Position numbers and translations under genes: made by a program
Shown here: positions 3,202 through 57,708 of the stretch, piece by piece
Numbering within the stretch: the stretch's first letter is position 1
Layout of the letters: every line of letters starts with the position of its first letter
Notes under the pieces: generated by a model
The model's input: the letters and a program-made list of their open reading frames with translations, nothing else
Told to the model about the DNA's origin: nothing
Database searches by the model: none
NCBI RefSeq assembly: GCF_024502345.1
Contig: NZ_JALDNN010000001.1
Source of the DNA: Escherichia coli
GTDB taxonomy: Bacteria; Pseudomonadota; Gammaproteobacteria; Enterobacterales; Enterobacteriaceae
Strand: one strand, 5' to 3'
DNA: 64,000 nucleotides

Positions 3202-3278
3202 TGGTCGGCACGAGAGGATTTGAACCTCCGACCCCCGACACCCCATGACGGTGCGCTACCAGGCTGCGCTACGTGCCG
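3202..3278 (-). tRNA. proL: tRNA-Pro (anticodon GGG)
   Basis: Reverse complement reads CGGCACGTAGCGCAGCCTGGTAGCGCACCGTCATGGGGTGTCGGGGGTCGGAGGTTCAAATCCTCTCGTGCCGACCA: 77 nt, cloverleaf-compatible, encoded CCA end. Confidence 0.95.
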
Positions 3279-6686: not shown

Positions 6687-7079
<393 letters not shown>

Positions 7080-48811: not shown

Positions 48812-48827
48812 TGTGAGTGATTTCACA
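48812..48827. promoter_or_regulatory. CRP binding site candidate of the mgl promoter
   Basis: TGTGAGTGATTTCACA, both consensus half-sites (TGTGA-N6-TCACA) intact. Confidence 0.65.
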
Positions 48828-52743: not shown

Positions 52744-52918
52744 GTAGGCCGGATAAGGCGTTCACGCCGCATCCGGCGACAGGAGCCAAATGCCGGATGC
52801 AACGCTGGCGCGTTTTATCCGGCCTACAATGAGTTCAACATACTGATTTGTATGGTTTTGTAGGCCGGATAAGGCGTTCAAGCCGCATCCGGCGACAGGA
52901 ACTAAATGCCGGATGCGT
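52744..52918. repeat. BIME: cluster of REP/PU palindromic units
   Basis: Two near-identical copies of TAGGCCGGATAAGGCGTTCA(C/A)GCCGCATCCGGCGACAGG with inverted partner units, between mglC and preA. Confidence 0.85.
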
Positions 52919-52926
52919 CTCTGGTT

Positions 52927-54162
52927 TTACAACGTTACCGGGTGTTCTTTCTCGCCTTTCTTAAACTTCACTTCCCCGAGCTCAATACAACCCACCGGGC
53001 AGACGTGACCACAAAGCAGACAACCCACACATTTCTCGGTATTACAATGCGGTGTGCGGGTTTTCTCGCTCCATTCCATCGCCTGGTGACCGCCGTCGTA
53101 ACAGGAAATATAACAGCGTCCACAGCCAACACATTTATCAAGATTGATACGGGGATAGACAATATAACTGCGGTCTAAATCTTCCGCCGGGACAATATTG
53201 TTATTCGCCAGACCTACCATCTCCTGCAACGAATCAAATCCCTGATCGGCGAGATAATGCGATAACCCGCTCGCCATATCTTCTACGATGCGATAGCCGT
53301 ACTGCATAATGCCGGTGGTGACCTGTAACGTTGCTGCGCCGAGCAATAAAAACTCCGCCGCATCCTCCCAGGTTTCAATGCCGCCGATACCGCTGATTGG
53401 GAAATCGCGCAGTTCTGGATGGGTGCGCATTTGCTGAATGAAGCGCAGGGCGATCGGTTTTACCGCTTTACCGGAATATCCGGAAATACTCGATTTTCCG
53501 TTAACGATCGGCATACCGATTTTCTGATTAAGATCGATATTGGTGATGGATTTAACGGTGTTAATCGCCGCAATGCCATCTGCGCCGCCGCGCTTCGCCG
53601 CCAGCGCCACTTCGCACATATCACCGATATTCGGCGTCATCTTCGCCAGCATTGGCAGCGTGGAACCCCGTTTCACTGCCCGACAATATTTTTCTACCAG
53701 CTCCGGGCTTTGCCCGACATCGCTACCCATCGCATGAGAAGTCATTTGCGGACAGGAGAAGTTACACTCGATCATATCCGCGCCAGCTTCTTGCACCAGG
53801 CGCGCCAGCTCCTCCCATTGCTGCTCATTTTCCCCCATGATCGAAGCGATCAATACTTTGTCCGGGTAATCTTCCTTCAGCCGACGCAGGGCGGCCAGAT
53901 TCTCTTCCAACGGATGTTCAGCAATCTGCTCCATATTTTTGAAGCCGATAAAACCGGTATCTTCTTTCACCAGATGATCAAAACGCGGCGAGACTTCGTT
54001 GGCGATAAAAAAGCCGATCGTTTTAAACACCACACCGCCCCAACCTGTGTCGTAGGCTTTGGCACACATCTCATAGCAGTTGCCTACCGGCGAAGAAGAG
54101 AGGCAGAACGGGTTGGGAAACTTCACGCCGCAAAAAGTAATCGAAAGATCTTTCGTTAACAT
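52927..54162 (-). CDS. preA: NAD-dependent dihydropyrimidine dehydrogenase subunit PreA (YeiA)
   Basis: Dihydroorotate-dehydrogenase-like domain plus C-terminal 2x[4Fe-4S] ferredoxin motifs; start taken at MLTKDLS, the ORF extends to 54168. Confidence 0.9.
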
Positions 54163-55394
54163 GAGCAAGCTCCCTCTAAATAGTGATGAATCGCCTCGGC
54201 GGCTTCTTTCCCGGTTTTCACGGCATAGACCACGGTTTTGTCACCCTCAACAATATCGCCCGCAGCAAAGACTTGCGGATCGCGGGTCTGATAATTTTGT
54301 GTATTGATAGTGTTACGCTGCGGCTCTAACTCCGCAAAGGCATCCAGTCTGGCATGCTGACCGACGGCGAGAATAATTTTATCTGCCGCCATCGTCAGTT
54401 CGCCCGGTAACCGTACATGCTTAAACGTGACTTTATTGCCTTCCACGACTACTGGCGTGAATCCATCGATGATCGAAACGCCCAGCTCTTGGGCGCTGGT
54501 AAACTCTTTTTCGCTTGCCGGAAACTCATCTAACTCTTCACGCGCTACGCAAGTTACCGCCTGACAGCCGAGAACTTTCAGCGTGCTGGCTACGTCCATC
54601 GCGACATCACCGCCGCCGATAATTAATGCGCTTTGTGGAATGCTGATATCGCCTTGCGCCTGTCGTACACGTTGCAGGCAGTCGACGGCAATCTCAACGT
54701 CACTATGCTCAAACAGCGGTAGCCCGGAACCGCTTGATAACCCCACGGTGACCAGTACCGCGCGGTTTTCTGCTTTCAGCTGCTCAAGGGTGAGTGTGTT
54801 ACCGACTTCGTTGTTGCACTTAATGGTCACGCCCATTTTTTCAATACGGGCGATCTCTGCATCCAGCACTGATTGCGGTAACCGGAATTGCGGAATACCG
54901 TTACGCAACCAGCCACCGGGGTGCGCTTCTTTCTCATAAATCGTGACGTCATAACCCTGGTTTGTCAGTGTTACACTGGCCTGCAATCCGGCAGGACCTG
55001 CGCCAATAATCGCGACTTTGCCGAGCGTTTTAGTACCGGGCTGATAAATTTCCATCCCAGTTTGTTGTTCAAAATCAGTAACAAAACGCTGTAAGCGACC
55101 GATATCAATGGGAGTATCAACACCGGCACGGGTACAACCGCTTTGACATAATTTCTCCGTCGGGCACACTCTGGCACAAACGGCACCGAGGGCATTATTT
55201 TCGCGAATTGTCTCGGCAGCGCCTTTAAAATTACGAAAGTAGATTGAGCGAATAAATTTCCCCGGATCGGTCTGTGCCGGGCAAGCCTGACTACAGGGAG
55301 CGTCATGACATAATAAACAGCGAGAGGCTTCTTTAATCGCCAGTAAAGGCGTAAAAGCCGGAGTGAGTTCATCCAGATAATTTTGTTGCGGCAT
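54156..55394 (-). CDS. preT: NAD-dependent dihydropyrimidine dehydrogenase subunit PreT (YeiT)
   Basis: 412-aa product with glutamate-synthase-beta-like FAD/NAD domains (GAGPAG). Confidence 0.9.
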
Positions 55395-55423
55395 GTGATC
55401 TTCCTTAATGCTATGAGTAATTA

Positions 55424-55552
55424 AGGCGAACGCTAAATATACTCGTCATACTTCAAGTTGCATGTGCTGCGTCTGCGTTCGCTCACCCCAGTCACTTACT
55501 TATGTAAGCTCCTGGGGACTCACTCACTTGTCGCCTTCCTGCAACTCGAATT
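55424..55552. repeat. ERIC (IRU) repetitive element
   Basis: Contains CGCTCACCCCAGTCACTTACTT (reverse complement of the ERIC2 primer) and ATGTAAGCTCCTGGGGA (ERIC1R-like), flanked by the GCGAACGC/GCGTTCGC inverted repeat. Confidence 0.75.
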
Positions 55553-55712
55553 ATTTAGAGTATAAATATTGCGTGCTGATATTAAGGCTATGCGCGTGGG
55601 GAAATTTATACTGTGAAAGGATTCACAAATAGCTGCGGTTCAGAATGTTATATCCGCAGCTTATTGAGTGAAGTAATAATTATTCTCAATAATTAACAGA
55701 AAAGAGAAAATA

Positions 55713-57708
<1,996 letters not shown>

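Follow-up and report, generated by a model that had tools for sequence, protein, structure and literature searches.

The anticancer drug 5-fluorouracil is inactivated by a bacterial dihydropyrimidine dehydrogenase, the product of the preTA operon, and the work on this activity was carried out in the Escherichia coli K-12 backgrounds MG1655 and BW25113 (bioRxiv 10.1101/820084; PMC11185696). In the 64,000-nucleotide stretch of E. coli DNA analyzed here, referred to as the window, a repeated element of the ERIC family (also known as IRU or RU-1) occupies the intergenic region between yeiS and preT, its proximal end 43 nt upstream of the preT ATG. K-12 MG1655, one of the two backgrounds of the 5-fluorouracil work, lacks this element. 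What gives this copy its local interest is its site, directly downstream of a conserved predicted CRP promoter of the operon, and the question raised by the locus is whether such an insertion modifies preTA expression or is simply carried in its leader. The evidence presented below leans toward the latter, a co-transcribed and largely neutral MITE insertion that probably causes little or no change in translation initiation.

Identity and surroundings of the element

The preliminary description of this DNA had placed a full ERIC/IRU copy between yeiS and preT, at positions 55424-55552. Comparison with the E. coli RU-1/ERIC and Salmonella SeRU-1 reference sequences (Delihas 2007, PMC2759123, Table 1a) bore out the identification and corrected the limits. 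The segment 55438-55564 is identical to the 127-nt E. coli consensus at 113 of 127 positions (89%), with no gap from end to end, and to SeRU-1 at 117/127, also without gaps. A misidentification of the repeat, which the same description had named as a refuting outcome, was ruled out by this full-length alignment. The limits first given do include the ERIC but are offset, taking in 14 nt of the left flank and missing the last 12 nt of the element. The primer sites lead to the same identification. The - strand has an exact match to the ERIC2 primer at 55480-55501, and the + strand has a match to ERIC1R, with one mismatch, at 55502-55523; each primer site occurs only once in the 64-kb window, and neither was matched in any of 100 dinucleotide-preserving shuffles. 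The presence of an ERIC at this locus is far above chance level.

The features of the region are collected in Table 1. The repeat finder identified terminal inverted repeats, TATACTC...GAGTATA, with 25-nt arms that are 80% complementary. These ends are like those of Salmonella SeRU-1, while the arms of the E. coli consensus are TATACCC...GGGTATA. The - strand of the element, which is the preT sense strand, corresponds to the consensus orientation of Hulton and of Wilson and Sharp, and the + strand to the orientation of the 42-codon open reading frame (ORF) described by Delihas. Length, central and terminal inverted repeats, TA ends, intergenic location and multicopy nature are all those of the ERIC family, and no essential difference was found. 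At 127 bp the element is too short to encode a transposase. The ERIC/IRU/RU-1 family has been known since 1990-91 (Sharples & Lloyd 1990, Hulton et al. 1991, Wilson & Sharp 2006). The copy at preT is a bona fide full-length non-autonomous MITE and an ordinary member of a family whose structure and polymorphism were already known.

Table 1. Coordinates of the ERIC element and of the features that surround it in the window.
Feature	Position	Strand	Basis or remarks
preT (yeiT) coding sequence, NAD-dependent dihydropyrimidine dehydrogenase subunit	54156-55394	-	RefSeq annotation of identical loci; followed by preA
preT Shine-Dalgarno sequence, AAGGAAG	55400-55406	-	In both alleles, a small native hairpin sequesters part of it
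Full-length ERIC/IRU/RU-1 element, 127 bp	55438-55564	-	Consensus alignment, primer sites, filled/empty comparison
Terminal inverted repeat, preT-proximal	55438-55462		25-nt arm, starts with TA (55438-55439)
56-codon ORF from ERIC-borne frame, antisense to preT	55462-55632	+	Judged spurious
Central inverted repeat of ERIC (hairpin tip)	55486-55517		Repeat finder; spanned by the ERIC-PCR primer sites (55480-55523)
Terminal inverted repeat, preT-distal	55540-55564		25-nt arm, ends with TA (55563-55564)
Predicted preT transcription start	55577 (+/- 1-2 nt)	-	Geometry; conserved AG 8-9 nt after TAGCCT
Predicted -10 hexamer, TAGCCT, of a class II CRP-dependent preT promoter	55585-55590	-	Conservation and spacing
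CRP-binding core, TGTGA-N6-TCACA, palindromic	55612-55627		Perfect match, center at 55619.5
Terminator-like hairpin after yeiS, GCTGCGG...CCGCAGC then UAUUUG	55626-55666	-	Repeat finder
yeiS	55713-55952	-	ORF list, RefSeq annotation
sanA	55955-56674	-	ORF list, RefSeq annotation

Elsewhere in the window, a match to the Rfam family naRNA4 (nucleoid-associated ncRNA 4/REP-type repeat; 52747-52824, + strand, 85.8 bits) lies just downstream of preA, and a tRNA gene (3205-3278) and an L25 (rplY) ribosomal-protein leader (6993-7018) were found on the - strand. With cdd-sanA-yeiS-preTA at the other end, we take this arrangement to be consistent with the K-12 order at 48-49 min, in reverse. The genes sanA and yeiS form a two-gene operon (PMC12176290), and the terminator-like hairpin that follows yeiS, which was not called by the consensus terminator scan, sets this operon apart from preTA.

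The reverse-complement frame of the ERIC is open and continues into the 56-codon ORF of the + strand, which brings up the possibility that the region encodes a small protein. The ERIC part of this ORF translates to YTRHTSSC...NSNYLEY, as does the RU-1 frame of Delihas, who reported fusions of the ERIC frame to genes elsewhere (PMC2759123). Nonetheless, coding activity at this locus is highly improbable. The ORF runs antisense to preT, no evidence of a promoter or a Shine-Dalgarno sequence was found for it, RefSeq has no annotation there in the genomes listed, with the exception of one 'hypothetical protein' under an ERIC match, and the ORF is destroyed in the alleles that lack the element, which are those of about 60% of the strains.

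Filled and empty alleles and the history of the insertion

The distribution of the element was surveyed by comparing the segment 55250-55800 with 5,426 complete E. coli genomes using megablast. An allele was considered filled when the match covered at least 80% of the query, and empty when two matching pieces spanned 426 instead of 551 bp. The preT locus was found in 5,425 of the 5,426 genomes, and the element was present at this location in 2,199 of the 5,426 (~40%), with about 3,226 genomes carrying the empty allele. These results substantiated the earlier suggestion that the element is strain-variable. K-12 MG1655 and O157 belong to the empty group, and E24377A is filled with a copy that is 100% identical.

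Alignment of both kinds of alleles defined the insertion. The empty allele reads GCTAAA-TA-AATATT and the filled one GCTAAA-TA-[123 bp]-TA-AATATT, which makes the filled allele 125 bp longer. The TA dinucleotides at both ends of the element are the duplicated target represented by the single TA of the empty allele, a duplication that reviews describe as expected of ERIC insertion. The comparison of filled and empty alleles thus confirmed the limits of the element.

The empty alleles occur in two flanking haplotypes, one that shares 97.7-99.5% identity with the window and one, K-12-like, that shares 94.4%; the band of 90-95% identity that corresponds to the latter included 1,467 megablast records. 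The yeiS-preT region of the K-12-like haplotype (compared with positions 55395-55720 of the window) is near-identical to those of Escherichia sp. E1V33 and E. whittamii. At the insertion point it reads ...ATTTAC/TAAAC..., which resembles the fused outer ends of an ERIC of the E. albertii type described below. The resemblance may be coincidental or may reflect a scar left by excision.

The filled alleles are not uniform either. In 237 genomes, such as that of E. coli M217, the locus contains a 205-bp 'long ERIC', produced by an insertion of 78 bp inside the ERIC between the positions equivalent to 55476 and 55477 of the window. The inserted sequence, GGTTATTCGGCCCATCCATGGGCC...GGATTTG, includes several small hairpins. 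The long form was also seen at a second locus, with ~91% identity. Escherichia sp. MOD1-EC7003 has an element of the window type with the 78-bp insertion and a central deletion.

When the 127-bp element alone was used as the query, at least one match covering at least 80% of it was found in 5,425 of the 5,426 genomes, with a median of 6 megablast places per genome (range, 1-11). Among the matches listed, nearly all had no RefSeq annotation underneath, the exception being the 'hypothetical protein' in one genome, and variation of this kind would consequently be invisible in gene-based comparisons. The closest paralogue found is the ERIC located between cusC and cusF in K-12-type genomes, which is identical to the window copy at 124 of 127 positions. 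The two copies differ in their contexts. That of cusC-cusF is situated 7 nt past the cusC stop codon, inside an operon, and its orientation relative to transcription is the opposite of that of the preT copy, which is in a leader. Moreover, in contrast to the polymorphic copy at preT, the cusC-cusF copy seems to be close to fixation in E. coli, as most genomes with an empty preT locus still show a 98.4% ERIC match.

The near identity to the cusC-cusF copy, together with a clean empty site within near-identical flanks, led us to favor a recent insertion at a spot that ERICs would have used before. Earlier use is suggested by other genomes. E. albertii has a diverged ERIC of exactly 127 bp located within a few nucleotides of the same point (1318-1460 of its locus sequence), identical to the window copy at 99/127 positions, with ends TTTACCC...GGGTAAA and a predicted folding energy of -55.9 kcal/mol. 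'E. coli E69' retains a remnant (1385-1465 of its locus sequence) that has these same ends but lacks the center. The same two genomes offer arguments for a different history, in which the ERIC would already have been at the site before E. coli and E. albertii split and the empty alleles would be losses through excision. Two other observations go in this direction. The motif GAGTCC is common to the window and E. albertii copies and absent from both consensus sequences and the cusC-cusF copy, and a divergence of 22% is plausible for neutral sites when the first 300 nt of preT have diverged by 10%. However, we consider an ancient presence less likely than a recent insertion. Unless gene conversion took place, it is hard to reconcile with the 124/127 identity to the cusC-cusF paralogue. 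Furthermore, in the close empty allele the flanks, 99.5% identical to those of the filled one, enclose nothing but the TA, as would be expected of a pre-insertion site, and Citrobacter and several Escherichia lineages are empty. An attempt to show that the E. coli and E. albertii copies are orthologous, by means of derived bases common to both, was abandoned because one of the motifs, GCGAC, is also found in the cusC-cusF paralogue and GAGTCC alone is too weak. The existence of ERIC-derived sequences at the same spot in E. albertii and 'E. coli E69' could mean that they were retained by selection rather than neutrality.

The predicted promoter and leader of preTA

The effect of the insertion depends on where transcription of preTA starts. 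A perfect CRP-binding core is located upstream of the ERIC, one of two in the 64-kb window, where 0.07 would be expected by chance. It was kept in all 25 preT loci compared (24 related loci from Escherichia, Citrobacter and Pseudocitrobacter plus that in the window), and yeiT is among the known CRP targets that were also recovered by genomic SELEX (PMC3105977). The hexamer TAGCCT is likewise present in the 25 loci, in 24 of them exactly 21 nt after the CRP core. The two motifs are separated by variable sequence, and the stretch downstream of TAGCCT differs among the loci in both length and sequence. With CRP centered at -41.5, the hexamer falls at -12 to -7. This layout fits a class II CRP-dependent promoter starting near position 55577, even though TAGCCT is a weak -10 element that matches at 3 of 6 positions. 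The model receives weak support from O157 grown in glucose minimal medium, where yeiT is up-regulated ~2-fold at a growth transition. The class II architecture that we propose for preTA is apparently not described in the literature searched; the preTA papers contained nothing on promoters or strain variation in expression.

Two other observations concern the same motifs. The second perfect CRP core of the window (TGTGAGTGATTTCACA) is located at 48812-48827, ~4 kb beyond preA, where, judging by its position, it presumably belongs to the known mglB/galS regulatory region. In E. coli BS15R-A, an IS1 was found inserted at the window equivalent of 55584/55585, the downstream edge of the predicted -10 hexamer, so that the ERIC and preT are cut off from TAGCCT and the CRP site, which probably silences or rewires preTA in that strain.

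Under the class II model, the ERIC would extend from +14 to +140 and the preT leader would grow from 58 to 183 nt. A different -10 hexamer could place the insertion in a more sensitive location. The sequence AATATT (55565-55570; TATTAT in K-12) abuts the insertion site and fits a class I promoter with CRP at -61.5. If this hexamer is the one in use, the start site would be located inside the first nucleotides of the ERIC; the insertion would then have taken place between the -10 and the start, and initiation on ERIC sequence (the pyrimidine-rich TATACTCT) would weaken or shift transcription. The K-12 TATTAT occupies the -10 position expected for CRP centered at -61.5, and the close empty allele has AATATT at that same position, directly abutting the target TA. 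Although this class I layout was favored at first, it was demoted because the hexamer is unconserved in Citrobacter and TAGCCT at the class II spacing is invariant in the 25 loci. By hand count, Citrobacter has CACTTT at the equivalent position, and in E. whittamii the hexamer is shifted by 1 nt. The distance between CRP and the AATATT region varies between genera, unlike that of TAGCCT, which stays at -12 to -7. A perturbed promoter is in our opinion quite unlikely, and even then the CRP site and the -10 would remain intact and almost all of the ERIC would still be transcribed. In both promoter models the insertion spares the ORF, its Shine-Dalgarno sequence and the promoter elements (CRP site and -10), and essentially the whole ERIC is predicted to be transcribed together with preT. 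Scans for consensus sigma-70 promoters and intrinsic terminators detected neither within the ERIC on the preT strand.

The RNA that would result from this transcription was analyzed by thermodynamic folding. On the preT sense strand, the ERIC folds into a single hairpin of 41 bp at -52.7 kcal/mol (z = -7.5), and on the + strand it folds at -38.9 kcal/mol (z = -4.4). The difference is due to G-U pairs, of which the sense-strand fold has four and the + strand fold has none. The claim in the preliminary description that the ERIC is transcribed as a structured RNA is thus very probably right, considering the predicted location of the element at +14 to +140 of the leader and its hairpin fold. Pairing was also compared across five ERIC sequences: the two published consensus sequences, the copies of the window and of cusC-cusF, and that of E. 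albertii at the preT locus. In this comparison 96.6% of the cells were paired, with four pairs changed on both sides, compared with 29-40% when the partners were slid, counts that indicate consistency with the known ERIC hairpin and no more, as the sample is small and the structure was derived from one member. Outside the element, the flanking segment 55426-55433 (GCGAACGC) is perfectly complementary to the internal ERIC segment 55475-55482 (GCGTTCGC), and this pairing competes with the canonical hairpin in folds that do not include the outer stem.

Partition-function folding of the predicted leaders gave no indication that the hairpin reaches the ribosome-binding site. The probability of being unpaired over positions -20 to +15 was 0.69 in the filled allele versus 0.69 in the empty allele, and that of the Shine-Dalgarno sequence was 0.37 in both. 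Other assumed start sites produced similar results. Since accessibility is equal in both alleles, translational masking is not predicted; in these calculations, which ignore co-transcriptional folding, ribosomes, RNases and Hfq, the ERIC behaves as a self-contained hairpin insulated from the ribosome-binding site. A fold in which the 5' ERIC arm pairs with preT codons 3-7 was considered as a way to mask the ribosome-binding site and rejected: it accounted for 0.3% of the ensemble, and only when the start was truncated inside the ERIC.

Effect on preTA expression and comparison with known elements

These observations can be assembled in a simple proposal. An ERIC, most simply a selfish or near-neutral one derived from a master copy like that of cusC-cusF, would have inserted at a TA dinucleotide in the preTA leader, duplicating it, at a point ~13 nt downstream of the predicted start of the conserved class II promoter activated by CRP. 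This would have disrupted neither the preT coding sequence nor its Shine-Dalgarno sequence, CRP site or -10 hexamer. The whole element would be co-transcribed, so that the leader would increase from ~58 to ~183 nt and gain a self-contained 41-bp hairpin. As this hairpin is predicted to be insulated from the ribosome-binding site, translation initiation would most likely undergo little or no change, and any effect would be exerted through altered mRNA processing or half-life, for example by RNase III or RNase E acting at or near the hairpin. A modest influence of this kind on stability is a real possibility.

A structured insertion of 125 nt in a short leader often alters mRNA levels, and for this reason the qualification of the preT ERIC as near-neutral may be wrong. 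In a strong form of the interpretation given in the preliminary description, the transcribed hairpin could change preTA expression 2-fold or more through mRNA stability or processing, and filled and empty strains would then differ in their reduction of uracil and 5-fluorouracil. The position of the ERIC wholly inside the predicted leader and the high stability of its hairpin are compatible with such an effect. Precedents are the hairpins of ERIC and other MITEs, which according to reviews influence how stable the adjoining transcripts are in Yersinia and Neisseria, and the ERIC-like Vibrio RNA V_AS5, seen as discrete transcripts (PMC2665243). However, the predicted accessibility of the ribosome-binding site is unchanged, and strong constraint is argued against by the 78-bp internal insertion tolerated in 237 genomes and by the central deletions in related genomes. 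A change of that size in expression is, in our view, possible but not the expected outcome. An even more consequential proposal is that the ERIC at +14 is non-neutral, so that ~40% of the strains would differ heritably in CRP-dependent dihydropyrimidine dehydrogenase output and hence in the inactivation of 5-fluorouracil in the gut, and that the sharing of the spot by more than one ERIC sequence type reflects selection on leader structure, not a TA-rich hotspot. We regard this combination as unlikely.

Irrespective of the answer, the presence of a structured 125-nt insertion in the predicted leader of ~40% of the sequenced E. coli constitutes a natural experiment on the relation between a 5'-leader ERIC and expression, and the element is a possible source of strain differences in drug metabolism. 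The literature search found no paper linking ERIC with yeiT, yeiS or preT.

In the literature searched, the one experimentally supported ERIC mechanism with which the preT copy can be compared is that of Yersinia enterocolitica ERICs (De Gregorio et al. 2005), in which, as described in reviews (PMC3184786, PMC2229807, PMC10969869), translating ribosomes unmask an RNase E site in one repeat arm and the upstream transcript is degraded. According to the same reviews, the effect needs the element to be near a stop codon and in one orientation (PMC3184786, PMC2229807, PMC10969869). The preT and Yersinia elements have in common the family, the hairpin fold, the TA duplication and, in the case of the preT copy by prediction, co-transcription. 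Unlike the Yersinia destabilizers, the preT ERIC lies within a 5' leader and has no ORF close upstream: a distance of 148 nt, which includes the terminator-like hairpin, separates it from the yeiS stop codon, and preT follows it. The stop-codon-adjacent, destabilizing element in the 2005 work of De Gregorio and colleagues is reportedly the one in the 'B' orientation. Comparison with the cusC-cusF copy, also adjacent to a stop codon, suggests that the orientation of the preT ERIC is opposite to that of the destabilizing type. The Yersinia mechanism, which operates at the 3' ends of genes and is orientation-dependent, is not directly transferable to a copy located in a leader and in the other orientation, and this weighs against the hairpin as a modifier of preTA expression.

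The Correia or NEMIS elements of Neisseria resemble the preT ERIC in being small MITEs with TA ends that are co-transcribed and whose repeat arms form double-stranded RNA stems in leaders. They belong to an unrelated sequence family, however, and are cleaved by RNase III, a cleavage that is not known from E. coli ERICs. In addition, some Correia elements carry promoters or IHF sites, none of which were detected in the preT ERIC.

A search of the element against Rfam returned no family at the gathering score, and with relaxed thresholds the preT-sense strand aligned with the full length (positions 1-129) of the covariance model RF02818, V_AS5 (Vibrio RNA AS5), at 46.7 bits (E = 2e-9), below the gathering score of 96 that defines membership. 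In Vibrio cholerae, sRNA-seq and northern blotting revealed V_AS5 as an RNA (Liu et al. 2009, PMC2665243). ERIC and V_AS5 share the same long-hairpin architecture, and the preT ERIC is a distant relative of this RNA rather than a member of its family.
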